Positions 15,158 through 32,693 of a DNA stretch of 64,000 nucleotides are shown one piece after another. Position 1 is the first letter of the stretch. Each line of letters starts with the position of its first letter. The translations under genes and the position numbers were made by a program. The notes beneath the pieces were generated by a model that worked only from the letters and a program-made list of their open reading frames with translations, was not told the DNA's origin and ran no database searches. This DNA comes from an uncultured Gammaproteobacteria bacterium (GTDB lineage Bacteria > Patescibacteriota > Microgenomatia > UBA12405), in contig CAYUZS010000001.1 in NCBI GenBank assembly GCA_964448705.1, positions 45,601 through 109,600 on the forward strand, given 5' to 3'.

Positions 15158-16330
15158 TTATTTTATGATTTCTGTAATAGCTCCAGCACCGACGGTTAAA
15201 CCGCCTTCACGAATAGCGAAACGGAAACCTTTTTCCATGGCTACTGGTTTAATTAATTTGATGATAACATCGGCATTATCTCCTGGCATGACCATTTCCA
15301 TACCTTCAGGAAGAGTGACATCTCCGGTAACATCAGTAGTTCTGATGAAGACCTGAGGTCGGTATCCGGTAAAGATAGGAGTGTGGCGACCACCTTCTTC
15401 TTTTTTAAGAAGAAGTACCTGAGCTTTGAACTCGGTATGAGGAGTAATGGTTCCCGGTTTGGACAAAACTTGGCCCCTTTCAATATCGTCTTTTTCGATA
15501 CCGCGAAGAAGAATACCAACATTGTCGCCAGCTTGACCTTGATCAAGTTGTTTGTGGAACATTTCAACACCGGTAACAACAGCTTTTTTAGTATCTCTAA
15601 GTCCGACGATTTCGACTTCATCGTTAATCTTAACGATTCCCCTTTCAATTCTACCGGTAGCAACTGTGCCACGGCCTTTGATAGAGAAGACATCCTCGAT
15701 CGGCATTAAGAAAGGCTGATCAAGTTCACGCTTAGGTTCAGGAATATAAGAATCCAAAGCTTCCATCAATTTCTTGATAGATTCAACACCTTCGGCTTCG
15801 TCATTAAGAGCTTTAAGAGCGGAACCGCGGATGATAGGAACTTCATCACCGGGATAACCGTATTTGGTAAGAAGATCACGAACTTCCATTTCGACCAGGT
15901 CGAGGAATTCAGGATCGGTAACCAAATCACATTTGTTTAAGAAAACAACCAAAGCCGGAACGTTAACCTGTTTGGCCAAAAGAACGTGTTCTCTGGTTTG
16001 AGGCATCGGACCATCTGGAGCCGAAACAACCAAAATAGCACCATCCATCTGAGCAGCACCGGTGATCATGTTTTTAACATAATCTGCATGTCCCGGACAG
16101 TCGATGTGGGCATAATGACGTTTCTCAGTTTCGTATTCGATATGAGAAATAGCGATAGTGACGATTTTAGAAGCATCACGAACGGTACCGCCCTTAGCGA
16201 TATCGGCATATGATTTAGGATTTCCCTGAACTTTAGCAATAGCAGCAGTAAGTGTAGTTTTTCCATGATCAACGTGACCAATAGTACCGACGTTAACATG
16301 GGGTTTATTTCTTTGATAAGAATCAGCCAT
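15158..16330 (-). CDS. tuf: Elongation factor Tu
   Basis: The start is at [27 protein letters not shown] (cat at 16328-16330). The protein is 390 aa with the full EF-Tu G domain and domains II and III. Confidence 0.97.
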
Positions 16331-16422
16331 TTTTTCTCCTTTTTTTATTTGTCTTTTAGACAGGTTCTCCCGCATTCGCGGGAAAAAAATTTAACAATTA
16401 ATTATAGCTAAAACGCTTTAAG

Positions 16423-16451
16423 ATTGTATCAGTAAGATATTGGCTTTGCAA
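16423..16451 (-). promoter_or_regulatory. Candidate promoter upstream of tuf (TTGCAA-N17-TACAAT, with TGn extended -10)
   Basis: The minus strand reads TTGCAAagccaatatcttacTGaTACAAT. It lies about 95 nt upstream of the tuf ATG, inside the fusA-tuf intergenic region. Confidence 0.4.
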
Positions 16452-16507
16452 GGCGGAAAATAAGCAAATTTTGCCATATCCCACTGAAGGGTGTCGATAA
16501 GTATTGG

Positions 16508-18616
16508 TTATTCCTTACCGGCAGTCTTAATAGTTAGTTTTTCTTGGATTTCACGAGGAACCGGATCGTAGTGTGACGGTTCAATGTAAAATGATCCACG
16601 ACCTTGAGTTAAACTACGAATGACAGTGGCATAACCCCTGACAGCATCCAACGGCACAAAGGCGAGGATGGTAGTAAAACCAAAAGCATCAGTTGTACCA
16701 TTGATTTGTCCACGACGTCCGGACAAATCTCCGATAACAGTACCCAAAAATTCTGAAGGTGTGGCCACCTCCATTTTCATGATAGGTTCCAAGACCAAAG
16801 GTCGGGCGGCCTCAACGGCATTCCTAATGGCATAAGCACCAGCTAATTTAAAGGCAGCTTCGGAAGAATCGACTTCATGATAGGAACCATCATAAACAGT
16901 AACTTTAAGGTCGGTACATGGATATCCGGCAATAATGCCTTTCAAAAGTGTTTCTTTGACTCCTTTTTCAATAGCGGGAACAAAGTTGGCAGGAATTACT
17001 CCTCCCTTAATACCATTCACAAATTCGACGCCTTCACCTCTGTTTTTAGGTTCAATTTTGATTTTACAATGTCCGTATTGACCATGACCTCCTGACTGGT
17101 GAATATATTTACCCTCACCTTCGGCATTTTGCGAAATAGTTTCCCGATAGGCAACCTGAGGAGCGCCGGTTTTAACACCGACATTAAATTCACGGCGAAG
17201 ACGATCCACAATAATATCGAGATATAGTTCACCCATACCGGCAATAATAGTCTGTCCGGTTTCCTGATTGTAGGTAACTTGAAAAGTTGGATCTTCAATG
17301 GCTAAACGGTTAAGGGCTGAACCCATTTTTTCCTGATCATCTGAGGTTTCAGGTTCAATCGAGAGTGAAATAACCGGATCAGCAAATTGAATCGGAGACA
17401 ATGAAATTTGAGAATTTCGATCACAAAGAGTATCGCCGGTTGTTGATTCTTTCAAACCGATACAGGCAATAATTTCTCCGGCAAAACCTTCTTCAATTCC
17501 TTCACGCTTGTCGGCATGCATTAAGAGCAAACGACCAATACGTTCAGTTTTTTGTTTGGTGGCATTGTAGACTTCTGAACCGGCTTTAATAGTACCGGAG
17601 TAAACGCGGATATAAGAGAGAGTGCCAACGTGAGCATCTGATTGAACTTTAAATAGCAAAGCTGAAAGAGGTTCATTTTTTAATGGTTTTCTGGTTATTT
17701 TTTCCTGAGTGTTGATATCAAAACCTTCAACCGGAGGCAAGTCTAAAGGTGAAGGCAGATAATCGACAATGGCATCCAAAATCGGATGAATACCTTTATT
17801 TCTCCAAGCAGCACCGCAAAAAACAGGGAAAAGACGACGATCAATGGTGGCCTGACGGAGAACAGCCTTTAATTCGGGAACAGATATTTCCTCATCATTA
17901 AGGAATTTTTCCATTAGTTTTTCATCTTCACCGGCGATTTTTTCGACCATTGAAGCTCTGGCTTTGGCGACAGCATCCTGATATTCCGGAGATACTTCTT
18001 TAATAGTGAACTCCATACCTTCTTCGTCTTTGTCATAAACAATCATTTTCTGGGCCATCAGATCGATGACTCCCATGAAATCATGTTCTTCACCAATAGG
18101 CAGAACCATAGGAATGATAGGAGCATGAAGTTTTTGAGTGATGGAATCGAGGGTGCTTTGAAAAGAAGCACCGATTTTATCCATTTTATTTACAAAGGCG
18201 ATTCGGGGAACACCATACTTATCAGCCTGACGCCAAACAGTTTCGGATTGAGCCTGAACACCGGCGTTGCCGTCAAAAATCATGATGGCACCATCAAGAA
18301 CGCGGAGTGATCTTTCGACTTCGGCAGTAAAATCAACGTGTCCCGGAGTGTCGATAATATTGACACGATAATCATGCCAAAAAGTAGTGACACATGCAGA
18401 CTGGATGGTAATACCCCGCTCACGTTCCTGAACCATAGTGTCAGTAGTAGTGGTGCCGGCATCGACAGAACCAATTTTATGGATGTTTCCGGTATAAAAA
18501 AGAAGACGTTCAGTGGTGGTGGTTTTTCCTCCGTCAATGTGAGCAATAATTCCTATATTTCGGACTTTTTCCATAGGAACATCACGGTTTTTGGTAAGTT
18601 TAATAGCGTCAGCCAT
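16508..18616 (-). CDS. fusA: Elongation factor G
   Basis: The protein is 702 aa with G domain motifs AHIDGGKTT and DTPGHVDF, and domains II to V. Confidence 0.97.
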   Translation of the reverse strand: MADAIKLTKNRDVPMEKVRNIGIIAHIDGGKTTTTERLLFYTGNIHKIGSVDAGTTTTDTMVQERERGITIQSACVTTFWHDYRVNIIDTPGHVDFTAEVERSLRVLDGAIMIFDGNAGVQAQSETVWRQADKYGVPRIAFVNKMDKIGASFQSTLDSITQKLHAPIIPMVLPIGEEHDFMGVIDLMAQKMIVYDKDEEGMEFTIKEVSPEYQDAVAKARASMVEKIAGEDEKLMEKFLNDEEISVPELKAVLRQATIDRRLFPVFCGAAWRNKGIHPILDAIVDYLPSPLDLPPVEGFDINTQEKITRKPLKNEPLSALLFKVQSDAHVGTLSYIRVYSGTIKAGSEVYNATKQKTERIGRLLLMHADKREGIEEGFAGEIIACIGLKESTTGDTLCDRNSQISLSPIQFADPVISLSIEPETSDDQEKMGSALNRLAIEDPTFQVTYNQETGQTIIAGMGELYLDIIVDRLRREFNVGVKTGAPQVAYRETISQNAEGEGKYIHQSGGHGQYGHCKIKIEPKNRGEGVEFVNGIKGGVIPANFVPAIEKGVKETLLKGIIAGYPCTDLKVTVYDGSYHEVDSSEAAFKLAGAYAIRNAVEAARPLVLEPIMKMEVATPSEFLGTVIGDLSGRRGQINGTTDAFGFTTILAFVPLDAVRGYATVIRSLTQGRGSFYIEPSHYDPVPREIQEKLTIKTAGKE

Positions 18617-18717
18617 ATTGTTTAAATCTTCCCTGCATCCCTTCTTACAAAATCAGTTTTCCGATTTTGAACAGAGAAAAAAGCAATTTAGATGTTTAAA
18701 TATAATTTATAAATTAA

Positions 18718-18743
18718 AAAACGGGCATAAATATCCCCGTTTT
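18718..18743 (-). terminator. Hairpin upstream of fusA: possible minus-strand terminator or insulator
   Basis: AAAACGGG-(10 nt loop)-CCCGTTTT is an 8 bp stem. On the minus strand it is followed by TTAATTTATAAATT. It lies about 100 nt upstream of the fusA ATG, at the boundary of the inserted rfb block. Confidence 0.35.
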
Positions 18744-18825
18744 CGGATGGATTTATGATATCACAGCTAAATAAAATTAGGAAGAGAATTCAATAGACAA
18801 AACTTTGAACAGTTATAATAGTAAT

Positions 18826-20019
18826 ATGAAAAATAAAAATGTAGTCATTATCGGGGCGGGAATGACCGGGCTGGTGACAGGATATGAATTAAGCAAAGAG
18901 GGATATAAAGTTAATCTCTACGAGAAATCGGATAATATCGGCGGATTAATGGGTGGTTTTAAGATTAATGAAACTTCTTTAGAGAAGGCTTATCATCACA
19001 TTTTTAAAACCGACAGCGAAATAATCGGCTTAATTAAGGAATTAGGTCTGGAAGACAAACTAAAGTGGCACGAAGAAAAAACAGGGCTGTATTTTGATAA
19101 AAAGATTTATCCTTTTATGGGAGCAGTCGACTTGCTGAAATTTAAGCCATTGGACTTGATATCCAAAATCAGATTGGGATTAGTTAAGATTTGGCTGGAA
19201 AACGATAATAACTGGGAAAAATATCACCAGGTTACAGCCAGTAATTGGATGAAAAAGTGGTGTGGAGAGAAGGCTTACCGAGTTATTTGGGAGCCGTTGT
19301 TAAAAGGTAAATTTCATGAACACTACGATAAAGTTTCGATGGCCTGGCTGTGGGCGAGAATTCATACCAGAGCAAATTCGGATGGAACTTTAGGATATAT
19401 GGATGGAGGTTTTCAACAAATTGCCGATGAATTGGCAAAAAGAATAAAAAACAACGGCGGGAATATTAATTTAGCGACCGAATACAAACCTGATTCTGAT
19501 AAAGAGGTAGTGATTTACACCGGTTCACTGAATGAAATTAAATATTTAGGGGCAGTCTGTTTAATTTTTACCAGTAAACAATCTTTGTCATCATTCTATT
19601 GGCATAATATTAATGACGAGAAGTCCCCTTTTCTGGCTTTTATCCAACACACAAATTTGGTCGATAAACAACAATACGGAGGAAAGGAAGTATATTATCT
19701 TGGCACTTACGTTCCCAATGAACACCGTTATTTTAGAGAAAATGAGGGGAATATCGCAAAAGAATTTTTTGATTATCTTAAAAAGATAGTGCCCGATTTT
19801 GAGCAAAATAAGATTCAGGACAAATGGCTGTTCAGATTTAAAAATGCCCAGCATATAGTGACGACCGATTACAAAGTTCCGGAGTATAAAGTCGGGAAAA
19901 ATCTCTATCGGGCTAACTTTGCACAGATATTCCCCGAAGACAGAGGAACAAATTTCTCGGTGAGAGAAGGCAGAAAAGTTGCCAAAATGGTGAAAAAAGA
20001 TTTTAAGCTTTCTTCTTAG
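18826..20019 (+). CDS. FAD/NAD(P)-dependent oxidoreductase of the amine oxidase / protoporphyrinogen oxidase-like superfamily. It could be a nucleotide-sugar-modifying flavoenzyme such as a UDP-galactopyranose mutase-like protein.
   Basis: The N-terminal Rossmann motif is VVIIGAGMTGLVTGYEL..GY.V.LYEKSD.IGG. The start was taken at ATG 18826; the ORF track used an upstream TTG. Its 3' end overlaps rfbA convergently by 17 nt. Confidence 0.6.
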   Translation: MKNKNVVIIGAGMTGLVTGYELSKEGYKVNLYEKSDNIGGLMGGFKINETSLEKAYHHIFKTDSEIIGLIKELGLEDKLKWHEEKTGLYFDKKIYPFMGAVDLLKFKPLDLISKIRLGLVKIWLENDNNWEKYHQVTASNWMKKWCGEKAYRVIWEPLLKGKFHEHYDKVSMAWLWARIHTRANSDGTLGYMDGGFQQIADELAKRIKNNGGNINLATEYKPDSDKEVVIYTGSLNEIKYLGAVCLIFTSKQSLSSFYWHNINDEKSPFLAFIQHTNLVDKQQYGGKEVYYLGTYVPNEHRYFRENEGNIAKEFFDYLKKIVPDFEQNKIQDKWLFRFKNAQHIVTTDYKVPEYKVGKNLYRANFAQIFPEDRGTNFSVREGRKVAKMVKKDFKLSS

Positions 20020-20713
20020 CCATATAGTTTGAAACTTCAAGTAGACTGTCGAAAGTACCCGCATCTTCCCAAAGTCCATTGAAAGTGTTGACTTTAAGAT
20101 TACCTGCCTGAAGATAAACATTGATTAAATCGGTAATTTCGAGTTCTCCCCTGGCTGAAGGTTTTAAATTTGAAGCATATTCAACCACTTTATTATCACA
20201 AACATAGAAACCGACTACGGCATAATTACTTTTGGGTTGAGTAGGTTTTTCTTCCAGAGAAACAACCTTTCGGTTAGCATCGAATTCAACCACGCCAAAG
20301 CGTTGGGGATCAGCAACTTCCTTGGCAAAAACCATGGCTCCGGATTCAAAATTACTGATTTCGGTGGAAAAATCCTGGTCAAAAATATTGTCCCCTAAAA
20401 TCATAGCCACAGAATCGGTGCCGATGAAATTTTTTCCAACAATAAAGGCATCCGGGAGACCTTTTGGTTCTTTCTGAACGGCATAACTGAAATGAGCATT
20501 AAAATCGGAACCATCACCTAAAAGATTTAGAAATTGTCCGGAATAATCGGGAGCAATGATAATTAAGATGTCTTTTATCCCGGCCTTGAGCAGGGTTTGG
20601 ATAGGATAATAGATCATCGGTTGATCGTAAATCGGCAGCAGTTGTTTACTGGTAACTAAGGTCAGAGGTCGAAGACGGGTGGCCCGGCCACCGGCAAGAA
20701 TAATTCCTTTCAT
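20003..20713 (-). CDS. rfbA: Glucose-1-phosphate thymidylyltransferase
   Basis: The N-terminus MKGIILAGGRATRLRPLT is the RmlA signature. The protein is 236 aa. The start has an ATGA overlap with rfbD. Confidence 0.9.
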   Translation of the reverse strand: MKGIILAGGRATRLRPLTLVTSKQLLPIYDQPMIYYPIQTLLKAGIKDILIIIAPDYSGQFLNLLGDGSDFNAHFSYAVQKEPKGLPDAFIVGKNFIGTDSVAMILGDNIFDQDFSTEISNFESGAMVFAKEVADPQRFGVVEFDANRKVVSLEEKPTQPKSNYAVVGFYVCDNKVVEYASNLKPSARGELEITDLINVYLQAGNLKVNTFNGLWEDAGTFDSLLEVSNYMAKKKA

Positions 20714-21585
20714 AATGATTGTTTAATAAATTGTAAACCTTCTTTTAGAGTTTTCGGACGAATACCAAATTCCGAAATCACTTTTTCATTAGACAGAGCT
20801 AAGTTGGGAGCGTACGGCCGAGCTTCAGGAGTCTTTAGATATTCAGCCAAAGATGAGGGTTGAACCAGGTCACTATTTAAATCAAAAACTTCAGCGATGG
20901 TTTTAGCCATATCGTAAGCAGACTGCGAAGATGAGCCAACCAAATGATAAATACCGGATTTTTCTTTACTGATCATCGTGCCAAGAACCAGGGCAATATC
21001 GTCAATGAAGGTCGGAGTGGTGAACTGATCATTAAACATGGTAACGGTTTGGTTATCAGCAAGTTTGGATATAATTTTGCGGACTATATCAATTTTGGCA
21101 GGAAAGTTTTGACGGTAAGGAAAAGCGATTCTGACAATAGCGGCATTTACGGAGGCAGCAATTTTTTCGGCTTCGAATTTAGTCTGACCATACCAATCCA
21201 AAGGATGGGGAGAATCCGTCTCGACATAACTACCCGTCTTTTGGCCGTCAAGAACAGAATCGGTGGAAATATGGATTAGATGTTTATCATGTTTTTGGCA
21301 AAGATCAGCAATATTTTTAGTACCAACAACATTGAGTTGATAACACAAGCCGGTTTTGTCGCCCCGTTGAGCCCAAGCGGCATTAGTATCGGTAAAAGCG
21401 GCAAAATGGATAACAACTTTGGCGGGACTGTTTTTAAAGATACTATCTAAAGAATCGGGCTTTAAAATGTCATAACCAGTATCAAGGGAAAGATCGGTGA
21501 ATTGATATTGAGGATTCAGTTCGACAACCCGGGAACCAACCAAGCCGGAAAGACCAGTGCCAATGATTTCTTTGGAAGAACTCAT
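20710..21585 (-). CDS. rfbD: dTDP-4-dehydrorhamnose reductase
   Basis: It has an SDR-like glycine motif GTGLSGLVGSRV and an RmlD-like length. The start ATG at 21585 forms an ATGA overlap with the rfbC stop; the ORF-track start was a TTG. Confidence 0.8.
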   Translation of the reverse strand: MSSSKEIIGTGLSGLVGSRVVELNPQYQFTDLSLDTGYDILKPDSLDSIFKNSPAKVVIHFAAFTDTNAAWAQRGDKTGLCYQLNVVGTKNIADLCQKHDKHLIHISTDSVLDGQKTGSYVETDSPHPLDWYGQTKFEAEKIAASVNAAIVRIAFPYRQNFPAKIDIVRKIISKLADNQTVTMFNDQFTTPTFIDDIALVLGTMISKEKSGIYHLVGSSSQSAYDMAKTIAEVFDLNSDLVQPSSLAEYLKTPEARPYAPNLALSNEKVISEFGIRPKTLKEGLQFIKQSL

Positions 21586-22214
21586 AATTTTTGATTCCAA
21601 TCAATTTTTTCCAGGTCAGAGCGAATTGATGAAAAAATAGGTAAAGCCAAATCTTTTTCTGACAATTCCAACGTTTGGTGAATATCCAAATTCCAATCAA
21701 TATTTAATTCCGGATCATTCCAGAAAATTCCTTTTGAAGCCGGCCCATTGTATAAGTTGTCGCATTTATAGGCAAAGATGGCTTTATCGGAAAGCACCTT
21801 AAAACCGTGGGCAAATCCGGAGGGAATGAAAAACTGATTGTTTTTTTCAGCAGTTAAAATTTCTTTTTCATATTTACCAAAAGTCGGAGAATCAGGACGA
21901 ATATCCAAGGCAACATCGAGAACTTCTCCGGAAATAACCCGGACCAATTTGGCTTGAGCATACGGAGGCAGTTGAAAATGTAAACCTCTGACTACATTTC
22001 CGGTGGAATAAGATTGATTATCTTGAACAAATTTATTGGTTATACCCGCTTTTTCAAAGATTTCCTGACTGTAGGATTCGAAAAAATATCCCCGATTATC
22101 TCCCCAAATTTTGGGTTGAATTCTATAGATTCCCCGTATTAAAGGCGATTCTACAAATTGAACATTGTTAACGGTTATCTCGACCGGAGTATATGCCGAA
22201 TCTTCTTTGTTCAT
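21582..22214 (-). CDS. rfbC: dTDP-4-dehydrorhamnose 3,5-epimerase
   Basis: It has a cupin fold with RmlC motifs (RGLHFQ....QAKLVRV..G...DV.VD.R..SPTFGK). Confidence 0.9.
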   Translation of the reverse strand: MNKEDSAYTPVEITVNNVQFVESPLIRGIYRIQPKIWGDNRGYFFESYSQEIFEKAGITNKFVQDNQSYSTGNVVRGLHFQLPPYAQAKLVRVISGEVLDVALDIRPDSPTFGKYEKEILTAEKNNQFFIPSGFAHGFKVLSDKAIFAYKCDNLYNGPASKGIFWNDPELNIDWNLDIHQTLELSEKDLALPIFSSIRSDLEKIDWNQKL

Positions 22215-23230
22215 GATTTTATATTTTGATAATTGTTAAGTTTTTTATAAAATTCTTCGGCTTCTACTTTTGACTGCCGCCACCAGGATTCACGGCTTAA
22301 ATACCATTCGATTGTTTTTTTAAGTCCGGATTCCAAAGTTTCTTTCGGCTCCCAACCAAGTTCGGTATGAATTTTATTCCAACTGACAGCATAATTATCG
22401 TGTGCCGGCCGGTCAACAACATACTCGATCATGTCCTCCGATTTACCCATGAAAGAAATAACTTTTTTGATGATATCAACGTTTCGACAAGTTTCCTTTA
22501 GTCCGCCGACACAATAGGTTTCACCTAATTTGCCTTTATTTATGACAGTTTCGATGGCAGAACAATGATCGTCGACATACAGCCAATCGCGAAAATTTTC
22601 ACCCTTGCCATAAACGGGAATTTTTTTACCATCAATCAGATTAGTTATCATTCTGGGAATTAATTTCTCCGGATGTTGGAAGGGACCGTAATTATTGGAA
22701 CAGTTAGTGATGGTAACCGGGAGTCCGTATGTTTTACCAAAAGAACGGACAAAATGATCTGATGAGGCTTTTGAGGAAGCATAGGGTGAAGAAGGATCGT
22801 AAGGAGTGGATTCGGAAAATTCAGCTGATGAACCGAAAGGGATAGAACCAAAAACCTCGTCGGTAGAAATGTGATGAAAGCGGATGTTTCCATTTCTTTT
22901 TGCAGCCGATAAAAGAGTGTAAGTACCTAAAACATTGGTCTTAACGAACAATAAAGGATCATCGATGGAGCGATCGACATGAGATTCTGCGGCAAAATGA
23001 ACGATTAAATCAGTTCCGGGGATAATTTTATCGAGCAATTCGGAATTTAAAATGTCGCCTTCGACAAAGGTATAACGGGAATCATCTTTAAAATCGAGGA
23101 GATTTGACTGATTGGCAGCATAGGTGAGTTTATCCAAATTGGTGATTTGGTCGTCCGGATGATGCTGAAACCAAAAACGGATAAAATTTGAACCGATAAA
23201 ACCTGAGCCACCGGTGATCAGTATTTTCAT
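22211..23230 (-). CDS. rfbB: dTDP-glucose 4,6-dehydratase
   Basis: The N-terminus MKILITGGSGFIGSNF and the catalytic YxxxK (YASSKAS) identify it as an RmlB-type extended SDR. Confidence 0.92.
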   Translation of the reverse strand: MKILITGGSGFIGSNFIRFWFQHHPDDQITNLDKLTYAANQSNLLDFKDDSRYTFVEGDILNSELLDKIIPGTDLIVHFAAESHVDRSIDDPLLFVKTNVLGTYTLLSAAKRNGNIRFHHISTDEVFGSIPFGSSAEFSESTPYDPSSPYASSKASSDHFVRSFGKTYGLPVTITNCSNNYGPFQHPEKLIPRMITNLIDGKKIPVYGKGENFRDWLYVDDHCSAIETVINKGKLGETYCVGGLKETCRNVDIIKKVISFMGKSEDMIEYVVDRPAHDNYAVSWNKIHTELGWEPKETLESGLKKTIEWYLSRESWWRQSKVEAEEFYKKLNNYQNIKS

Positions 23231-23236
23231 TTTTAT

Positions 23237-24589
23237 TTATTTTGTTGGGGTAGGGATTTTTTCGGTACTTAATTCAGCACCAATTATAAAGACGACATCA
23301 TATGTGGCACTGTCTTTAAGATCGGCAGTAATTTCAGCATTGGAAAAATCTAATATTTTGTCTTTAAAATAGGCAGATTCAGAACTAAGGCTGGCCTTGG
23401 TTTGAATCGAATTGGCAGTAGCAGATTCTTTGCTGTTGCCGACAGCGACACTGGTGAAACCTAAAGCGGTAAGTTTTTCTTTAAGAACAGCCGCTTGTCC
23501 ATTAATATCGGTACCATTTAGAACCTGAATCTTTAGTTTTTTGCTAATTTCAGCGACAGTCGGAACAGGGGTATTGGTGGGCATTTCGACAATGGAGGTG
23601 GGAGAGACAGAGTCACTTACCGGGGTTTCAATATTGGTATTAGTAGAATCTTTGGTAAGGACATACCAAATAATTCCTGAAGCGATCAAAGCAGTGACCA
23701 CAAAGACAATGATAAAGGGCAGTATATTATGACTTTTTTCCATTTTTCTAGTTGATGAATTGCTATCTACAGACTGGCTTATTATAGCAGGTACAGCGTT
23801 TGAGGAAATAATCAAACCTATAACCGGAAGAGGCAAATTAGCAGCTTTTTTAAATTCCTGAGCGATTAAGGCCGGAGAATACGGAGTTTTATCCAGAGAA
23901 CTGGTGGCATTAATTTCTAAATCATGTTCGGCGGGGATATAGAACTTGGTAGTTAGAGTGGGAAAATATAAGTTTGAGTAGTTAACTATTTTTTGGACAT
24001 CCAGCTCGGAACCTTTTAAATTAGCAGTTAAATAAACCGAATCTTTTTTGGATAAGGAAAGAGTATATTCCCCTTTGGCCAAAGGATAGATTAAAAAGTA
24101 TTCTCCATCAAAACGAAGAGAAATAACTTTAGAGATGGCCTGAGAAACCGATTCAAAAGCGAAAGATTTAAGTTTTAAGAGATCAAGATTGGCCTTAAGA
24201 GCCTCAATTTTTGACTTGTCAAAAAGGTGAGAAAGAATTATGGTTTTGCCGGAAGTAGGGATAAGTTTGAAGTCCATAAAATCCGGGTGGATTTTAAAAT
24301 GGACAGCACTCTGGGCCAAACCGATAACTTCGGCTTTTTCAATAGAAGTAATTTCGGAATCGTAGATAAATGATTTGGTGATGACAACATCATCCGGGAT
24401 GAGGATGGTGCATTCGTCAACTTTATTTTGACTAAGAAGAAGAACCAGAGATTGAATTTCGACATCTGAACAAGGTTTCCAAAGATTTATATCAACGGAA
24501 AAGGTATTGTTCTCCGTTTTGTCCAGATAGAGGTCGGTGACATCTGATTTCGGCCACAAAACGGCTTTTGGTTTGGAAAAGAGTGACAT
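23237..24589 (-). CDS. Membrane protein with an N-terminal cytoplasmic domain (PilM/FtsA-like is a tentative assignment), one TM helix and a C-terminal LytR_C (LytR cell-envelope-related attenuator) domain
   Basis: The TM helix is ILPFIIVFVVTALIASGIIWYVL. The C-terminus KIQVLNGTDINGQAAVLKEKLTALGFTSV.VGN.......SIQTK........D.....VVFIIGAE fits the LytR_C pattern. The start is at MSLFSK (cat at 24587-24589). It is tightly packed between rpsG (12 nt gap) and rfbB (6 nt gap). Confidence 0.55.
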   Translation of the reverse strand: MSLFSKPKAVLWPKSDVTDLYLDKTENNTFSVDINLWKPCSDVEIQSLVLLLSQNKVDECTILIPDDVVITKSFIYDSEITSIEKAEVIGLAQSAVHFKIHPDFMDFKLIPTSGKTIILSHLFDKSKIEALKANLDLLKLKSFAFESVSQAISKVISLRFDGEYFLIYPLAKGEYTLSLSKKDSVYLTANLKGSELDVQKIVNYSNLYFPTLTTKFYIPAEHDLEINATSSLDKTPYSPALIAQEFKKAANLPLPVIGLIISSNAVPAIISQSVDSNSSTRKMEKSHNILPFIIVFVVTALIASGIIWYVLTKDSTNTNIETPVSDSVSPTSIVEMPTNTPVPTVAEISKKLKIQVLNGTDINGQAAVLKEKLTALGFTSVAVGNSKESATANSIQTKASLSSESAYFKDKILDFSNAEITADLKDSATYDVVFIIGAELSTEKIPTPTK

Positions 24590-24619
24590 TGAATAATGGT
24601 AGCACAAAAGGTTTTATGA

Positions 24620-25102
24620 TTACCAGCGCAAGTGAGCGAAAGCTTTGTTGGCCTCGGCCATTCTTTCAATTTCCTGACGTTTAGAGACAGAAGCACCTTC
24701 ATTTTTGAGAGCTGAAAGCAATTCAGCGGACAATTTGCTGCCAAAAGAATGATGTTGTTTACTGGAGAGGGAACGGGAACTATTGACCAACCAGCGAATA
24801 GCCAAAGATTGTTGACGATTTCCACGAACCGGAGTCGGAACCTGATAAACAGCACCACCAATACGGCGGGGACGAACTTCAATTTTTGGTTTAATACTGT
24901 CGAGGGCCTGTTCCAGAACCGTAACCACATCATCGGTTTTAGTTTCTTTTTTTAGGATTTCTAAAGCAGCATAGACTTCCTTTTGAGCAGGAAGTTTTTT
25001 ACCGTCTTTCTGGCAATAATTTATTATCTTACTGACAGTGACACTGTTGTAAAGAGTATCGGGAGCGATGTCTCTAATTTTTGATTGACCTTTTCTGGAC
25101 AT
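24620..25102 (-). CDS. rpsG: 30S ribosomal protein S7
   Basis: The protein is 160 aa with the S7 profile (...RPRRIGGAVYQVP..V...R....A.RW). Confidence 0.95.
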   Translation of the reverse strand: MSRKGQSKIRDIAPDTLYNSVTVSKIINYCQKDGKKLPAQKEVYAALEILKKETKTDDVVTVLEQALDSIKPKIEVRPRRIGGAVYQVPTPVRGNRQQSLAIRWLVNSSRSLSSKQHHSFGSKLSAELLSALKNEGASVSKRQEIERMAEANKAFAHLRW

Positions 25103-25126
25103 AAGTTTTTATATTAATTTAGAATT

Positions 25127-25549
25127 TTAAGCGGCAGTCTTGGTGGGGCGTTTAGCTCCATATTTACTGCGGGATTGCAGACGTCCGGCAACAGCTCCGG
25201 CGTCATATTTTCCACGGATAACATGATAACGAATACCCGGTAAATCCCGAACACGACCACCACGAATAGAGACGATACCGTGTTCAGCCAAGTTGTGACC
25301 GATTCCGGGAATGTAAGCAGTGACTGAGCTTCGGTTGCTAAGTTTAATCCTAGCCACTTTCCGCAAAGCGGAATGTGGCTTTTTAGGAGTCATAGTTTTG
25401 ACAACGGTAACCACTCCCCTCTTAATAGGATTAAAAGTGTTAACCGTACGATTTTTAATGCTGTTAAAGTTGTTGCGTAAAGCACCAGCCTTAACTTTAA
25501 AAATACGAACTTTGCGGCCTTTTTTGATTAGTTGGTTAAATGTTGGCAT
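25127..25549 (-). CDS. rpsL: 30S ribosomal protein S12
   Basis: The protein is 140 aa. [12 protein letters not shown] and PKKPNSALRKV are S12 signatures. It starts 6 nt after the rpoC stop. Confidence 0.96.
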
Positions 25550-25555: not shown

Positions 25556-28500
25556 TTATTTTGTGATTTGTTCCCGATTAACAGGAATAAGACGTCCGAT
25601 AATAACATTTTCCTTAAGACCAATCAAGTTGTCGACTTCGGCCAGAAGTGAAGCTTCGGTCAAAACCGATGTGGTTTGCTGGAATGAAGCGGCTGATAAC
25701 CAACCACCAGCAGACAAGGCGGTTTGAATAAGTCCAAGTAGAATTTTCTTGCCTTTTGCCGGTTTACCGTTATTGGCCTTGGCTTTATCGTTCTCAGCAT
25801 TGTATACAGCCTTGGTGACGGTTTGACCATACAAGAAATTTGTATCTCCGGGATCTTCAATCTTGATTTTGTCACTCATTTCTTTAACCATGACCTCAAT
25901 GTGCTTATCATGGATGGAAATTCCCTGAGATTCATAAACTGATTGAATACTGGCGATTAGATATTTCTGAGCAGCTTCGATGCCCTTAATATCCATGATT
26001 TCCCGAACATCCAGAGAACCGGAACTGAGCTGTGTTCCCTGAGCGACTAAGTCACCATCAGAAACCATGATATTAACATTGCTGGGAAGCAAATAAGTGA
26101 CGGTTTTATTGGCATTATTTTTATCTTTGCCGGTAAGTTTAATTTCAAAACCATCAATATTTTCTTTAACTCTAATTTTGCCATCAAATTCGGCCAAAGG
26201 TGAAGGAAGTTTAGGAGTTCTGACTTCAAAAAGTTCCTGAATACGGGGTAAACCTTGAGTCACGTCGACACCGACAACTCCTCCGGTATGCTTGGTACGA
26301 AGAGTTAACTGTGTACCAGGTTCTCCGATGGATTGAGCAGCAATAACACCAACCGGAACTCCGAGTCTGACCAGTTTTCGGGTGGAAAGATCCCAGCCGT
26401 AACATTTGCGGCAGACACCAATGGTAGCCTTACAGGTTAATGGTGAACGAACATCAACAGATTCGATATTGCCGGATTCCAAAATCGCGACATGATCGTT
26501 GTCGATAAGAGTGCCCTTAGCCAAAATAACTTTATTGGTTTTGGTATCTATAGCGTCATTAGCTAAAACTCTGCCTAAAATACGACGACCAAAATAGCGT
26601 TCGCGGCCTTTTTCATTTTTGTCGACAGTGACGAATTTACTGGTGCCACAGTCATCTTCTCTGGTGATACAGACATGAGCGGCATCAACTAAACGACGGG
26701 TTAAGTAACCGGCGTCGGCAGTTCTTAAAGCGGTGTCGGCTAAACCTTTACGGGTTCCTCTGGCTCCGGTAATGTATTCGAAGACAGATAAGCCTTCACG
26801 GAAGTTGCTCTTTGTAGGCAAAGGTACGATGTGACCAGTAGGATCAACCATCAATCCCCGCATACCTGAAAGCTGTTTAATCTGATCTTTTGAAGCCCGC
26901 TTGATACCGGCGGCAGCCACAATTTTGATCGGAGAATCGCTATTAAGAGTTTCCCAAGTTTTCTCGGCAATCTCTTCAGTGATTTCCATCCACAAACTTT
27001 GACTAAGCCGTTTCTTTTCTTCATTACTGATTAAACCCATTTTGAAATTGTCTTCAATTTCGGAAATGCGTTGATTAGCAGAATGAATAATGTCTTCTTT
27101 ACCGGCAAGATAGCCGCAATCGGACATAGAAAGTGACAAACCGGAAAGGGTGAAACCTTCAAAACCAATATCTTTCAAATCGTCAATCAATTTGACGGCT
27201 CTCATCCGACCAACTTGTTCCATAGTCCGGATTACCAAGTCAGAAACTGACTTTTTACCGGCCATAGGTTCGTTGAGGAAACCAAATTCCTTAGGAACAA
27301 TCTGATTGAACCAAATACGACCGTAAGTAGTTTTTATTAATTTACCGTCGATCCGAACACCAATAAGTTGACGTAATTGTATTTTACCCAATTGATAGGC
27401 CAAAATTACTTCTTCTTTGTCAGAGAACAAAGGTAAGTTTTCAAAACTATCCGCTTGTTCCATAGAAAGGTCTGACTCCTGAACGGAAGTTACATAGTAA
27501 CAACCGACAGCCATTTCCTGTCCGGGAATAGAGATCGGGTTGCCATCAGATGGTTTTAATAAATTGTGTGAAGGCAGCATTAAGTTTCTGGCTTCTTTAA
27601 GAGACTCTTTGGACAAGGGTAAATGAACACCCATTTGATCTCCATCGAAATCAGCGTTAAAACCGGCACACATACACGGATGAAGCCTTATGGCCAATCC
27701 GTCAGTGAGAATAGGTTTGAATGCCTGAATCGACAGTTTATGCAAAGTCGGAGCGCGATTTAGAAGAACATAACTATCCTTAGTAATTTTTTCCAAAATG
27801 TCGTAGACCTCACTAACCCGATGGTCAATAAGATTCTTAGCACTTTTAATGTTGGCAGCTAAACCGCAGGAAATTAGTTCTCTTAATACAAAAGGACGAT
27901 AAATTTCCAAAGCAATTTCTTTAGGAAGACCGACTTGATTCAATTTCAAATCCGGGCCGACAACGATAACTGAACGACCGGAATAATCTACCCGCTTACC
28001 TAAAAGGTTGCGACGGAAACGTCCTTTTTTACCGCGAAGCAAATCAGACAGAGCACGCGGAGTACGTTTACTTGATTTACGTTTATTCTTGGAGCTTTTA
28101 GCAGCATCGATTAAAGTGTCGACAGATTCCTGAAGCATTCTTTTTTCGTTACGAAGAATGATTTCCGGGGCGCCAAGTTTCAAAAGTTTTTTGAGACGGT
28201 TATTTCGATTAATTAAACGACGATAAAGATCGTTCAAATCGCTGGTAGCAAAACGACCGCCGGTTAATTGAACCATAGGACGAAGATCCGGTGGAATAAC
28301 CGGAATTTGGGTAAGAATTGTCCATTCAGCGCGGATACTATTTTCAATCATGCCGTTCAAGATTCGGATCTTGTACATGATTTTCTTTTTCTTGAGTTTA
28401 GAACTGGTTTTAACCAATTCTTTCTTCAAGTTTTTGACAGTGGCGGGAAGATCTAATTTCTTAAGAACATCATAGATAGCCTCGGCGCCCATGCTGGCTT

Positions 28501-29290
28501 TATAGAAAATATCGGCTTTGAATTGGGAAAGATAAAAACTTTCTTCATCGCTAAGAGTGGATAAGACTTCAATAGAATTAATCTTGTCTTCCAAGAATTT
28601 CATTAAACTTTCGATTCGGTTCTTTTCACTTAAAGCCCGATTTTCCAGTTTTTGGATTTCCTGCTTAAGACGAACATCTCTCTCTTCAGTCGCGATTAAC
28701 AGCTGGTCTTTATTTTTAATTTTAGTCTTAAGAACCTTCTTTTCTTCCTCTGTTTGTTTGGTTTTATCGACAATTAATTTTTTAGTATCAACATCGATTT
28801 GAGAAAGACGGGATTTGGCATTGGAGTTAAGATTGTTCAAAGCTTCTTTTCGCTTATCACTGTCGACTGAAACTATCAGATATTTAGTGAAATAAACAAC
28901 TGATTCAAGTTCTTTTTGAGGAACATCCAGAATCGTGCTTAAAGGTGAAGGAGTGTTGCGAAGGTACCATAAATGGGTTACCGGAGCAGCCAAAGTGATG
29001 TGTCCCATGCGTTCACGTCGAACTTTGGAAGTGGTAACTTCCACACCGCACTTGTCACAAATAATCCCCTTGAATCGGATCTTTTTGTACTTTCCGCAAT
29101 AACATTCGTAATCGTGGCTGGGCCCAAAGATCTTTTCACAGAAAAGACCATCTTTTTCCGGACGCCAACTTCGATAATTAATTGTTTCCGGCTTAAGAAC
29201 TTCTCCATGTGACCAGGAAAGAATTTCGTCAGGCGAGGCCAGTTTGATTTTAAGACCACTAAAATCGATCATGCTTTTAAATTTAAACAT
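25556..29290 (-). CDS. rpoC: DNA-directed RNA polymerase beta' subunit
   Basis: The start was taken at MFKFKSMIDF..IKLASPDEILSWSHGEV (cat at 29288-29290), abutting the rpoB stop. The NADFDGD catalytic motif is present. Confidence 0.95.
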   Translation of the reverse strand: MFKFKSMIDFSGLKIKLASPDEILSWSHGEVLKPETINYRSWRPEKDGLFCEKIFGPSHDYECYCGKYKKIRFKGIICDKCGVEVTTSKVRRERMGHITLAAPVTHLWYLRNTPSPLSTILDVPQKELESVVYFTKYLIVSVDSDKRKEALNNLNSNAKSRLSQIDVDTKKLIVDKTKQTEEEKKVLKTKIKNKDQLLIATEERDVRLKQEIQKLENRALSEKNRIESLMKFLEDKINSIEVLSTLSDEESFYLSQFKADIFYKASMGAEAIYDVLKKLDLPATVKNLKKELVKTSSKLKKKKIMYKIRILNGMIENSIRAEWTILTQIPVIPPDLRPMVQLTGGRFATSDLNDLYRRLINRNNRLKKLLKLGAPEIILRNEKRMLQESVDTLIDAAKSSKNKRKSSKRTPRALSDLLRGKKGRFRRNLLGKRVDYSGRSVIVVGPDLKLNQVGLPKEIALEIYRPFVLRELISCGLAANIKSAKNLIDHRVSEVYDILEKITKDSYVLLNRAPTLHKLSIQAFKPILTDGLAIRLHPCMCAGFNADFDGDQMGVHLPLSKESLKEARNLMLPSHNLLKPSDGNPISIPGQEMAVGCYYVTSVQESDLSMEQADSFENLPLFSDKEEVILAYQLGKIQLRQLIGVRIDGKLIKTTYGRIWFNQIVPKEFGFLNEPMAGKKSVSDLVIRTMEQVGRMRAVKLIDDLKDIGFEGFTLSGLSLSMSDCGYLAGKEDIIHSANQRISEIEDNFKMGLISNEEKKRLSQSLWMEITEEIAEKTWETLNSDSPIKIVAAAGIKRASKDQIKQLSGMRGLMVDPTGHIVPLPTKSNFREGLSVFEYITGARGTRKGLADTALRTADAGYLTRRLVDAAHVCITREDDCGTSKFVTVDKNEKGRERYFGRRILGRVLANDAIDTKTNKVILAKGTLIDNDHVAILESGNIESVDVRSPLTCKATIGVCRKCYGWDLSTRKLVRLGVPVGVIAAQSIGEPGTQLTLRTKHTGGVVGVDVTQGLPRIQELFEVRTPKLPSPLAEFDGKIRVKENIDGFEIKLTGKDKNNANKTVTYLLPSNVNIMVSDGDLVAQGTQLSSGSLDVREIMDIKGIEAAQKYLIASIQSVYESQGISIHDKHIEVMVKEMSDKIKIEDPGDTNFLYGQTVTKAVYNAENDKAKANNGKPAKGKKILLGLIQTALSAGGWLSAASFQQTTSVLTEASLLAEVDNLIGLKENVIIGRLIPVNREQITK

Positions 29291-29291
29291 A

Positions 29292-32200
29292 TTAGTTTTC
29301 CTCCTCCACTGGAGTATTTGTAACTGCGGAAGCGTCAATTTCAGTTTTTTCTTCATCGACAACTTCTTTGACACCTGTAGGACTGATGTCGATAGCTAAA
29401 CCGGCAAGTTCTTTGGTAAGAACTTTGAATGATTCAGGGATTGCCGGTTCGGGAATGGGCTGACCTTTGATAATAGCTTGGAAAGCGTGTGTCCGCCCTT
29501 CAATATCATCGGATTTAATAGTCAACATTTCCTGAAGAGTATGGGCAGCGCGATGTGCTTCCAAAGCCCAGACTTCCATTTCTCCAAGTCTTTGTCCACC
29601 CATACGGGCTTTTCCACCCAAAGGTTGTTGAGTGACCAAGGAATAAGGTCCGGTAGAACGGGCATGAACTTTGTCGTCAACCATGTGAACCAGTTTGACG
29701 ATATAACCAATACCGACAACAGCTTTCTGATCGTAGGCGTCACCGGTTCGGCCATCATAAAGTTGGGTTTTTCCGCTAATATCCAAACCAGCTTGTTTTA
29801 ATTCATCAGCAATTTGGGATTCGGAATATTTCTCGAAAACAGGAACGGCATATTTTTTGCCAAGTTTCCAACCGGCGTAGCCTAGGGTAACTTCCAAAAT
29901 CTGTCCCAAATTCATACGGGCGATAACTGACAAAGGCGACATGACCATATCCACCGGAGTACCATCAGCCAAACGAGGCATATCATATTCCGGCATAATA
30001 CGGCAGATAACACCTTTGTTTCCATGACGTCCGGCAATTTTGTCTCCTTCCTGAATACGGCGGATTTGGGCAACATAAACTTTGACAACTTTATTGACTC
30101 CGGGATCAAGTTCATCACCTTTTTCTTTATCCAAAATATCGACTTTGATGACAACTCCACCTTCACCATTGGCAACTCTTAAGGAAGTGTCTTTAACTTC
30201 ACGAGCTTTTTCACCGAAAATAGCACGTAAAAGACGTTCCTCAGCCGTCAACTCTTTTTCACCGCGGGGTTCTACTTTACCAACAAGAATATCGTTGGGT
30301 CCAACAGTGGCACCAATCATCACAATACCGTCCTCAGTTAATTTAGCCAATTCGGCTTCGGAAACATTGGGGATATCTTTGGTTAATTCTTCACTGCCTA
30401 ATTTAGTTTCGACAACCTGAGCAACATTTTCATAAATTTGAATGTTGGTTAAAACATCTTCTTTAATCAAACGATCGGAAACTAAGAATGAATCTTCGTA
30501 GGAAAGACCGTCAATAGAAGCATAAGCGACTAAAAGATTACGGCCAATTGACAATTCACCATTATCAGTGGAAGGACCGTCAATAAGTACATCTCCTTTT
30601 TTAACTGTATCACCCAAGTTAACTAATACTTTTTGGTTGTAACAGGTACCGTAAGGTGAAGTGCGTTCAAATTTGGAGGTGTAATAGGTTTCAGTTTTAC
30701 CATCAGAAGAAATTTCGCTGTGCTTACCAACCTCTTCTTTAACGAGTTTGGAATCTAAGGTAACAACGACTTTTTCACCGTCAATATAGGTTACTTTTCC
30801 CGGATGATTGGCCACAATTGACCTGTTCATCGAGGTGGCGATTACTCCTTCCATCCCGGTACCGATGATAGGAGATTCAGGACTGACCAGAGGGACAGCC
30901 TGAGTCTGCATGTGAGAACCCATAAGGGCACGGGTAGCATCATCATGATCAACAAAAGGAATCAAAGAAGCAGAGGCACCAACAATTTCGTTGGGAACTA
31001 AGTCAATATAAGAAACACCTTCGACAGGACCTTCGATAAATTCGCCCTGATAACGAATTGGCAACCATTCTTGTTTAATGTTGTTATTTTCGTCAATTTT
31101 TACACCAAGATGGGTTATATTTGCATTATACTCATCATCGGCATCCAAATAGACAACATCATCATCTATATGGTATTGACTGCCTTTCTTAATAACCTTT
31201 CGGAAAGGAGCTTTAACAAAACCATATTTATCGACATCGGCATAGAGAGCCAAGTAGGTAACTAAACCAATGTTCGGACCTTCAGGAGAACGGACAGTAC
31301 AAATACGGCCATACTGACTGGAATGAACGTCACGAATAGAGAAAGCAGCTCTTTCCCGAGTTAAACCACCGACACCGACAACGGTAACACGGCGGAGAAG
31401 GTCAATTTCCGAAAGAGGATTGGTTTGATCCAAAATAGCGGAAAGTTGGTTGCTTCTAAAGAAAGTATTGAGTGAAGAAATAAGAGGTTGAGGATTGATC
31501 ATCTGGCTCGGGAGCGGTTTTTCTTTGGTGGAAATAAGCGACATTCTTTCTTTAACCATTCTTTCGAAACGGGCTAAAGCAGGACGGATGGCGACTTGGG
31601 AGACGATTTCGCCACAACGTCGGAGACGGCGGTTGGCCAAAGAATCGATGTCATCCAGACGGGTAACTTCTCTTTTTTGAAGTTGGATTAGGTATTTAAT
31701 AGTGGCAATTAAATCTTCTTTACGAATTACCCAATTTTCCTGATCATCATCGTCAAATTTGAAACCAAATTTTTTATTGACTTTGTAGCGGCCGACATTT
31801 CCCAATTCATAGGTCCTTAAATCAAAAAATCTTTCGGTAAAAAATTTCTGGGCATTTTCCAAAACCACCGGCTCTCCCGGTCGAAGTTTTCGATAGAATT
31901 CCAAAACAGCCTCTTCAGAAGTTTTGGTAGGATCAGCTTGAATAGTAGCATTTATAAAATCTGAAAACTCGCCAACTAATTGTTTGTCTCCCATCTGGCA
32001 GGCAGCACGAAGAAGAATAGTAGCGGGAAATTTCTTTTTGCGGTCGATTCTGGCAAAAATAACATCTTTTTTACCAATGAAAAACTCCAGCCAAGAACCT
32101 CGGACAGGACGAATTTCAGCATTAAAAAGTGTTTTACCGGTTGAAGGATCGGATTCTCCGGTGAAATAAACACCAGGAGAACGAACGAGTTGATTAATGA

Positions 32201-32579: not shown

Positions 32580-32599
32580 CGATGATAGGTATAACTACT

Positions 32600-32626
32600 A
32601 AAAGAAAGACCCCCGTGGTGACGGGA
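32600..32626 (-). terminator. Hairpin plus U-run between the upstream secreted-protein gene and rpoB: candidate terminator or attenuator in the rpoB leader
   Basis: The minus strand reads tCCCGTcaccACGGGg followed by GTCTTTCTTTT. It lies about 75 nt downstream of the 32702 gene stop and about 20 nt upstream of the rpoB ATG. Confidence 0.4.
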
Positions 32627-32664
32627 AAAGCGAGTTATGTTCCAACCGCTCGCCGAATGCGGAG

Positions 32665-32693
32665 ATTATATACTTAATTTATGCGTAGAGCAA
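32665..32693 (-). promoter_or_regulatory. Candidate promoter for rpoB-rpoC (TTGCTC-N17-TATAAT)
   Basis: The minus strand reads TTGCTCtacgcataaattaagtaTATAAT, beginning 9 nt after the upstream gene's stop. It was identified by consensus only. Confidence 0.3.

Follow-up and report, generated by a model that had tools for sequence, protein, structure and literature searches.

A lineage-wide split of the str operon in Candidatus Shapirobacteria, with a LytR_C membrane protein gene, rhamnose genes and a convergent flavoprotein gene between rpsG and fusA

The canonical str operon (rpsL-rpsG-fusA-tuf) of the rpoBC-str-S10-spc supercluster is a close described counterpart of the locus reported here, and operon concatenation in ribosomal superclusters is the nearest framework. 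In these superclusters highly expressed translation operons are concatenated, standing end to end without terminators and with promoters inside the preceding genes (Brandis et al., 2019, PMC6735719), and in Gammaproteobacteria small multigene insertions of non-mobile genes are tolerated between operons (PMC6735719). A stretch of 64,000 nucleotides (assembly GCA_964448705.1, contig CAYUZS010000001.1, positions 45,601 to 109,600; referred to as the window, in whose coordinates all positions are given) was analysed here. Its lineage is Candidatus Shapirobacteria (Microgenomates; Candidate Phyla Radiation (CPR)/Patescibacteria). The minus strand of the window carries, in order, rpoB, rpoC, rpsL, rpsG, the gene of a membrane protein with a LytR_C domain (the LytR_C gene), rfbB, rfbC, rfbD and rfbA. 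A convergent flavoprotein gene follows, then fusA and tuf, then rpsJ and the S10 operon. The str genes keep the set, order and orientation of the canonical array, with rpoBC upstream, S10 downstream and a promoter-like site before rpsL. Unlike in the canonical str operon, rpsL, rpsG, fusA and tuf are co-directional yet not adjacent, and fusA and tuf each have a separate conserved promoter-like box. From the end of rpsG (24620) to the start of fusA (18616) is 6.0 kb, occupied by six genes, one of them on the opposite strand; among 64 distinct complete loci this distance ranges from 2.7 to 11.7 kb (median 6.0 kb). The locus shares with operon concatenation (PMC6735719) the end-to-end packing, the promoters embedded in a preceding gene and the small non-mobile insertions, but differs in that the str operon itself is interrupted and that the interruption is fixed throughout a lineage of candidate phylum level. 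No paper describing this str-operon insertion was found in the literature.

We hold with moderate confidence that the split is old and lineage-wide, and that the array is a set of concatenated transcription units rather than a single operon. In the Shapirobacteria lineage the ancestral str operon (rpsL-rpsG-fusA-tuf) was split long ago. Two constant genes stand between rpsG and fusA, the LytR_C gene on the same strand and the gene of a flavoprotein with a protoporphyrinogen-oxidase (PPOX) fold on the opposite strand, and the interval between them behaves like a variable cargo slot, most often holding rfbB-C-D. The first unit would be rpoBC; the second would be rpsL-rpsG, with its extended -10 promoter inside the last stretch of rpoC; the third would be LytR_C-rfbBCDA, with a promoter of leaderless type and a -10 box that stops 6 nt short of the LytR_C ATG. 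fusA and tuf would each be transcribed from a conserved extended -10 promoter of their own, and the hairpin at 18743-18718 is a conserved, terminator-like element of the fusA leader, close to the predicted promoter. LytR_C-rfbBCDA may form a cell-envelope module supplying dTDP-L-rhamnose for a wall glycopolymer, with the LytR_C protein as a putative membrane scaffold in wall assembly, by analogy with VirR and Cei.

Loci of relatives were fetched via the LytR_C protein (76 GTDB species-level genome loci) and via ribosomal protein S7 (80 metagenome loci). Thirteen window proteins were mapped onto all fetched loci by tblastn, and about 130 public Shapirobacteria loci were covered overall. In all 76 GTDB loci, and in all metagenome loci with S7 identity of at least 57% and enough downstream sequence, rpsG is followed by the LytR_C gene, either adjoining or a few kb on, and those reaching far enough have the order rpoB-rpoC-rpsL-rpsG-LytR_C. 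One possible exception, L090 (S7 69% identical), has three reverse-strand open reading frames (ORFs) and no LytR_C match in the 1.86 kb past rpsG, and may carry an insertion like those of L042 and L093. The convergent flavoprotein gene stands just before fusA-tuf-rpsJ in every relative locus that reaches fusA. Across relatives LytR_C identity drops to 32% while RpoB stays at 71-90%, which argues that the arrangement is old. The synteny comparison proposed in an earlier note on this DNA thus gave a lineage-wide insertion, not a strain-specific one.

In outgroups (S7 identity at most 53%) fusA mostly begins 9-95 nt past rpsG (L141, L145, L147-150, L155). Several other lineages in the S7-anchored metagenome sample lack fusA directly past rpsG (L151/L153/L157, L156 and L158), and L146 has an insert of 1 kb there, with an ORF on the reverse strand. 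The split is therefore uncommon without being unique, and the earlier statement that rpsG and fusA are contiguous in almost all bacteria was too strong. In L151, hrcA-, grpE- and dnaK-like ORFs lie 3.5-6 kb downstream of rpsG; the next ORFs of L156 resemble dnaJ and nusA, and L158 has one psbD-like ORF, all of these being named from N-terminal sequence only.

The insert could also be read as a recent horizontal acquisition, a strain-specific island or an assembly chimera. Elsewhere among bacteria rfb clusters often show mobility, the slot content differs between relatives, and rfbA is found at this position only in this genome. Against this, the frame of rpsG, LytR_C, flavoprotein gene and fusA recurs in about 130 loci from many studies, with LytR_C identity as low as that given above. 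The earlier note suggested a look at GC content and codon usage for signs of recent acquisition; in composition the insert matches its flanks. GC content at third codon positions (GC3) is 0.32-0.39 in the inserted genes vs 0.32-0.37 in the flanking genes, and the tetranucleotide distance of the insert is within about 2 standard deviations of the window mean; recent horizontal transfer of the insert was rejected because its GC, GC3 and tetranucleotide profiles match the flanks. Identical junctions are present in L001, L002 and L159, which are independent assemblies from two sequencing runs, and an assembly error joining two contigs is excluded because the same junctions recur there and in the related loci. 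A recent origin is thus very improbable, and is refuted for the insert as a whole. A recent local event could explain the position of rfbA alone.

The interval between LytR_C and the flavoprotein gene is variable. Among the 64 complete loci it holds rfbBCD in about 41 and rfbB alone in about 6, and is empty in 13. rfbA is present in only 4 of the 64, at differing positions, and the order rfbB-C-D-A is unique to this genome. Extra ORFs in the slots of relatives include NUDIX (8 ORFs), MFS (3), SIMPL and YecM, and many have no family. L025 carries an F-type ATP synthase set (Pfam ATP-synt_ab, ATP-synt, ATP-synt_B) at 15628-21098, between the rfb genes and the flavoprotein gene, so the slot accepts large, unrelated insertions. 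An envelope-specific island was considered and is not supported by extra ORFs of these kinds, most of which are unannotated. On the other side of the LytR_C gene, L004, L007, L067 and L073 have a same-strand ORF of 139-144 aa between rpsG and LytR_C (about 9510-9990); that of L004 matches no Pfam family and is 18-32% identical to the copies in L007, L067 and L073.

Gene identities were assigned by Pfam and NCBIfam profile scans of the window proteins. From rpoB to rfbA all genes are on the minus strand. rpoB (29292-32579, 1095 aa; from the ORF list, its position kept in all relatives) is followed by rpoC (25556-29290), whose start is uncertain (ATG 29290 or 29272) and lies 1-19 nt past the rpoB stop depending on the ATG chosen. 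Then come rpsL (25127-25549; S12, 140 aa; TIGR00981, 177 bits), rpsG (24620-25102; S7, 160 aa; TIGR01029, 168 bits), the LytR_C gene (23237-24589; 450 aa; Pfam LytR_C, 33.9 bits, cut-off 22.2), rfbB/rmlB (22211-23230; dTDP-glucose 4,6-dehydratase), rfbC/rmlC (21582-22214; 3,5-epimerase), rfbD/rmlD (20710-21585; reductase, 291 aa from ATG 21585) and rfbA/rmlA (20003-20713; glucose-1-phosphate thymidylyltransferase, short form, 236 aa). On the plus strand, the flavoprotein gene (18826-20019; ATG 18826, 397 aa; NF005560, 424 bits) overlaps rfbA convergently by 17 nt at the 3' ends.

These scans bear out the insert content given in the earlier note, and the 6-kb separation of rpsG and fusA that it described is physically present. 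Its gaps of 6 nt (rpoC/rpsL), 24 nt (rpsL/rpsG) and 6 nt (LytR_C gene/rfbB) are borne out by the sequence. Its distance of 12 nt from rpsG to a 456-aa LytR_C product assumed a TTG start at 24607, and has to be replaced by 30 nt and 450 aa: the start was placed at ATG 24589 because 22 homologues share a conserved MSLFSKPK-type N-terminus (present in all 22 aligned sequences, with M1, F4 and S5 invariant). An exact-match look-up of the 456-aa ORF gave no match because the true start is further downstream. The 4-nt overlaps that it placed at all rfb junctions stand for rfbB/rfbC and rfbD/rfbA, and for rfbC/rfbD only with the rfbD start at ATG 21585, which is the gene call on an identical Logan contig (L001).

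Packing of this kind could reflect one nine-gene operon from rpoB to rfbA, as proposed in the earlier note, with a single promoter upstream of rpoB and rhamnose synthesis co-expressed in fixed proportion. All nine genes are co-directional, the gaps after rpoC are 6, 24, 30 and 6 nt followed by 4-nt overlaps, and a TATAAT box lies upstream of rpoB. A scan found no intergenic terminator-like hairpin between rpoB and rfbA in this genome, and a terminator at the rpoC-rpsL junction was found in 0/82 relatives. The close co-directional arrangement therefore stands, while the conserved promoter-like boxes described below, inside the array, speak against a unit driven from rpoB alone. Generic promoter and terminator scans were at chance level in the window, so the window alone cannot decide. 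Promoter activity and transcript boundaries were inferred here from motifs and hairpins and from their conservation in relatives.

The extended -10 motif TGnTA[TC]nAT was searched within 150 nt upstream of each gene in distinct lineage sequences. It was found before rpsL in 94/94, before fusA in 48/53 and before tuf in 37/41. Counts before the other genes were 0/53 (rpoB), 0/78 (rpoC), 0/107 (rpsG), 2/73 (rfbB), 0/54 (rfbC), 0/54 (rfbD) and 1/23 (rpsJ). The predicted rpsL promoter (25599-25627, minus strand) lies within the 3'-terminal part of rpoC, with the rpsL ATG about 50 nt further on, and consists of a -35 element TTGATT, a 17-nt spacer and the extended -10 TGTTATTAT (25607-25599). Eighteen nucleotides around the box, GAAAATGTTATTATCGGA, are identical in 95/95 distinct lineage sequences, synonymous sites included. 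Outgroups that encode the same rpoC peptide vary at the synonymous sites of the box, and its invariance in the lineage thus indicates constraint at the nucleotide level.

Before the LytR_C gene, a predicted leaderless-type promoter is located at 24596-24604 (minus strand). Its box TGCTACCAT, which reads TG-C-TACCAT, is separated from ATG 24589 by a 6-nt spacer, TATTCA. Start-codon-anchored sequence logos were uninformative because of variable spacing, and counts of motif with distance were used instead. A -10 box ending 5-10 nt (mode 6) before the LytR_C ATG is present in 93/98 distinct sequences (TGnTAnnnT in 63, CATACT in 30). In control genes the same geometry occurs in 1/100 (rpsG), 2/88 (rpsL), 5/71 (rfbB) and 0/51 (rpoB). 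Leaderless mRNAs typically show this geometry. Of the 34 occurrences of the box-plus-ATG layout in the window, 12 start a long ORF, vs 6.3% of all ATGs, which suggests that leaderless transcripts may be frequent in this genome. A -10 box 5-8 nt before the ATG was seen at 12 window gene starts, for example 6456, 18826, 24589, 35606, 46536, 47995, 53094 and 59808. No paper on leaderless transcripts or on Shine-Dalgarno use in Patescibacteria was found.

Predicted intrinsic terminators of canonical form, with a G+C-rich hairpin ahead of a T-run, were found in the rpsG-LytR_C spacer of 32/47 relatives with a spacer of 40-160 nt, vs 3/235 shuffles. An example is AAACGCCCC-loop-GGGGCGTTTTTGTTATA, and carriers include L009, L011, L021, L023, L025, L037, L097 and L104. 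The window and its nearest relatives (L079, L080, L003) have spacers of 17-30 nt and no terminator. A promoter and terminator between rpsG and LytR_C were named in the earlier note as evidence that would refute its reading; evidence of this type is present, although the terminator is a feature of relatives and not of this genome. Repeats of the type CTTGATAAA, akin to those of the fusA leader (see below), stand before LytR_C in some relatives. Beyond LytR_C, the distance to rfbB exceeds 400 nt in 36/75 relatives, often with inserted reverse-strand ORFs, and a terminator follows LytR_C in 8/39 loci with rfbB within 400 nt. Together with the boxes before rpsL and LytR_C, these features make the single nine-gene operon unlikely.

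With concatenated units, LytR_C-rfbBCDA would be the best-supported true operon of the array, and its junctions of 6 nt and -4 nt suggest translational coupling. No terminators separate the units here, so read-through from ribosomal promoters into the envelope genes is plausible. Such read-through from a ribosomal-protein promoter probably adds to envelope gene expression in this genome, but it is not the conserved design.

The box before the LytR_C ATG may alternatively be a signal at the RNA level, either for initiation or re-initiation without a Shine-Dalgarno sequence or as an S7 autoregulation site, in which case LytR_C-rfb would be expressed solely from the far end of the rpsL-rpsG transcript. 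Regulation of the str mRNA by S7, at a site between cistrons, is established for E. coli. The fixed distance of the box from the start codon agrees with such a signal, and no Shine-Dalgarno-like sequence was visible at any of the junctions examined. However, the unrelated families TGnTAnnnT, CATACT and TAAACT all fit the -10 consensus (A2, T6) and have no other motif in common. Genes behind divergent or non-coding DNA show this layout too; one is the flavoprotein gene at 18826, and re-initiation can be ruled out at such starts. A terminator between rpsG and the box, as found in many relatives, calls for a promoter downstream of it. We regard an RNA-level signal as improbable on these grounds, and a promoter of the third unit as the better account of the box.

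On the other side of the insert, fusA (16508-18616, minus strand; EF-G, 702 aa; TIGR00484, 983 bits) is preceded by a predicted promoter with the extended -10 TGATATCAT at 18755-18763 (minus strand), whose columns are invariant in the alignment. The 48/53 relatives counted above carry TGnTATCAT or TGnTATGAT. A terminator-like hairpin with arms AAAACGGGG and CCCGTTTT and a T-run was folded at 18716-18743 (minus strand). It has a 9-bp stem of about -11.9 kcal/mol and a TTTTTT tail, the sequence features of an intrinsic terminator. It begins 11 nt past the fusA -10 box, ends about 100 nt before the fusA ATG, and lies 1.26 kb downstream of rfbA, across the antisense flavoprotein gene. A hairpin with a T-run is found at the same place of the fusA leader in 27/38 relatives vs 0/190 shuffles, with at least 7 unrelated stem sequences, and most relatives share a module of TGnTATCAT, about 10 nt, hairpin and T-run. 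One subclade has TGCTATGATAC and lacks the hairpin. As placed by the predicted start, the hairpin is at the extreme 5' end of the fusA transcript and in the path of minus-strand read-through. It may insulate fusA, attenuate transcription or stabilise the mRNA. A known RNA family was considered for the fusA-leader element and rejected, as 18560-18860 gave no Rfam match at gathering score and only chance-level ones (E up to 5).

A second hairpin, AAAATCGG-AAAA-CTGATTTT, was noted in the fusA leader at about 18637-18656 (minus strand), about 20 nt before the ATG; when the 209-nt intergenic region was folded (z = -2.7), it appeared in the minimum free energy and centroid structures alike. The fusA leaders of many relatives (L006, L007, L009, L012, L024, L031, L040 and others) contain short direct repeats in tandem, each of about 8-12 nt. 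Their sequence differs by species (e.g. AATTCGTAATTCGTAATTCATAATTCGTAATT), and an exact periodic run of at least 10 was found in 9/53 leaders vs 2/530 shuffles.

For tuf, a promoter is predicted at 16423-16451 (minus strand), with TTGCAA, 17 nt and TGaTACAAT; an extended -10 is found there in 37/41 relatives. rpsL, fusA and tuf are thus each preceded by a separate conserved extended -10, and fusA by a terminator-like hairpin as well. This accords with the suggestion of the earlier note that fusA-tuf need a promoter of their own, and its promoter candidate upstream of tuf and its boundary hairpin at 18718-18743 both proved to be conserved elements.

Several points weigh against the old split into concatenated units as set out here. 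Promoter and terminator calls follow an E. coli-type model by consensus or conservation, and to our knowledge CPR promoters have not been characterised. The rpsL box lies within the conserved rpoC motif ENVIIG, so part of its conservation comes from coding. TGNTATNAT is not enriched over the 64-kb window (12 matches vs 9.2 expected). The box conserved ahead of the LytR_C ATG might act in translation, or as another RNA signal, and not as a promoter. rpoB has no such conserved motif (0/53), and the absence of the motif before rfbB, rfbC and rfbD is therefore no proof that promoters are absent there. The loci are related by descent, and the counts are of non-independent events. The envelope role of LytR_C rests on domain analogy, and the slot of relatives carries non-envelope genes, so the linkage may be historical and not functional. 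As a separate observation, all 12 matches of TGNTATNAT fall on the minus strand, where nearly all window genes are encoded.

The LytR_C protein (450 aa) is bitopic. Residues 1-265 form a cytoplasmic domain with a predicted PilM/GspL/FtsA-like actin fold, followed by a transmembrane helix (290-312), a Pro/Thr linker and an extracellular LytR_C domain (352-437). The AlphaFold model has a mean predicted local distance difference test (pLDDT) score of 75, and of about 90 for residues 10-260; judged from this model, the cytoplasmic part has the actin-like (ASKHA) fold of PilM/GspL assembly-platform proteins. With one transmembrane helix, a C-terminal LytR_C domain and no LCP domain, the protein has the layout of LytR_C-only proteins (VirR/Cei type). 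Of all Pfam families, only LytR_C (PF13399) matched every one of the 22 family members at E up to 1; none has a catalytic LCP domain, and none matched Pfam PilM or GspL at E up to 1. The Cei model NF035953 gave 30.9 bits vs a cut-off of 150. A phmmer search of the N-terminal domain against 1.84 billion representatives returned 37 proteins only, most of about 440-490 aa like the query. Homologues are annotated almost only as Candidatus Shapirobacteria, Microgenomates or Patescibacteria. With so few proteins found and no PilM/GspL profile match, the protein represents a lineage-restricted family of GspL-like architecture.

A component of a type IV pilus or type II secretion system was considered and rejected, since the fold is similar but there is no profile match and there are no pilus neighbours. 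In about 130 loci the neighbours are rpsG and the rfb or flavoprotein genes, not pilus or secretion genes such as pilN/O and pilB/gspE, and the slot ORFs included no pilus genes either. The family thus differs from PilM-PilN and GspL of type IV pili and type II secretion in lacking a sequence-level Pfam match and adjacent pilus or secretion genes, and in having LytR_C as its outer domain in place of the PilN/GspL periplasmic domain. It differs from the mycobacterial LytR_C-only proteins VirR and Cei/Rv2700 in the added 265-residue cytoplasmic actin-fold domain and in its restriction to Shapirobacteria.

In mycobacteria, LytR_C-only proteins take part in remodelling the cell wall, and their LytR_C domain is the part that binds LCP ligases (PMC11832169); rhamnose is the linker sugar of a glycopolymer that LCP enzymes attach to peptidoglycan (PMC7831098). 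By analogy with these, an envelope role of LytR_C-rfbBCDA would be coherent. A more speculative proposal gives the LytR_C protein the role of a lineage-defining scaffold for envelope assembly, with its expression linked on purpose to the making of ribosomes, through the leaderless promoter and read-through tuned by the rpsG terminator, so that growth rate is coupled to wall-glycopolymer (rhamnose) production in ultra-small, host-dependent cells. We consider this doubtful.

The rhamnose genes encode the four-enzyme set of rmlBCDA/rfbBCDA operons and share with these the overlapping stop and start codons. For RmlB and RmlC the scores exceed the NCBIfam equivalog cut-offs (TIGR01181, 459.6 bits vs 365.1; TIGR01221, 218 bits vs 155.75). 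RmlD and RmlA are below theirs (TIGR01214, 166.8 bits vs 224.05; TIGR01207, 310.7 bits vs 360.65), with these models as their best-scoring families, and pass the Pfam domain cut-offs (RmlD_sub_bind, 177.9 bits; NTP_transferase, 212 bits). The assignment of RmlA and RmlD is thus likely, though below the curated threshold. RmlA ends at position 237 of 286 of TIGR01207 and is therefore without the C-terminal region of canonical RmlA. Unlike in known rmlBCDA/rfbBCDA operons, the window RmlA is short by about 50 C-terminal model residues, no glycosyltransferase or flippase genes are adjacent to the cluster, and the cluster is led by the LytR_C gene within a ribosomal gene array. The rfbA copies of relatives match the window RmlA over 98-100% of its length. 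Synthesis of dTDP-L-rhamnose is conserved widely among CPR classes, Microgenomatia being one of them (PMC9166423); no paper on rhamnose in Shapirobacteria was found.

The convergent flavoprotein gene has its own TATAAT box at 18814-18819 and a 6-nt spacer, AGTAAT, before ATG 18826, which is a leaderless-type layout. The AlphaFold2 model of its product (pLDDT 90) had 2ivd and 5mog as top Foldseek matches, and by this model the protein has the fold of PPOX, phytoene desaturase and amine oxidases. An identity as UDP-galactopyranose mutase, with which the locus would have been a rhamnose and galactofuranose wall module, was considered and rejected: only the N-terminal dinucleotide-binding motif matches this enzyme, and the confident model, matching protoporphyrinogen oxidase, phytoene desaturase and amine oxidases, also rules it out.

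Further features were noted at the two ends of the array. tuf (EF-Tu; ORF list and profile scans) is listed at 15158-16375 (minus strand), an ORF that bears a 15-codon N-terminal extension. Since family models align its product from residue 18 onward, translation probably begins with MADSYQ, near 16330. A hairpin, CCCGC-GAAT-GCGGG, follows a T-run and overlaps the listed tuf ATG 16375 (16368-16381); the probable start is about 40 nt downstream of it. No rplKAJL genes precede rpoB, and the gene upstream of it encodes a 194-aa protein without a Pfam family. The 122-nt rpoB leader (32580-32701, minus strand) contains the TATAAT box and, directly ahead of the rpoB ATG, a terminator-like hairpin (32627-32610), an arrangement reminiscent of the E. 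coli rplL-rpoB attenuator. No Rfam family reached gathering score anywhere in the 64-kb window, which therefore holds no tRNA, riboswitch or ribosomal-protein leader of the curated library.

New here, within known kinds, are a synteny feature specific to the lineage, a domain architecture and a map of predicted promoters. The understanding of mechanism is unchanged, and the main value lies in annotation and in hypotheses for metatranscriptomics. Since the str operon is among the most conserved bacterial gene arrays, its fixed lineage-wide interruption is a useful synapomorphy of Shapirobacteria and a natural experiment on the tolerance of ribosomal superclusters to insertion. The predicted boxes and hairpins provide a first testable promoter and terminator map for a CPR lineage, with extended -10 motifs for translation genes, leaderless-type ones for others and canonical intrinsic terminators. 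The membrane protein in which a predicted PilM/GspL-like fold is joined to LytR_C is lineage-restricted and uncharacterised, and is a candidate player in CPR envelope biology. The significance would rise if transcript mapping showed regulated coupling of ribosomal-protein and envelope gene expression.

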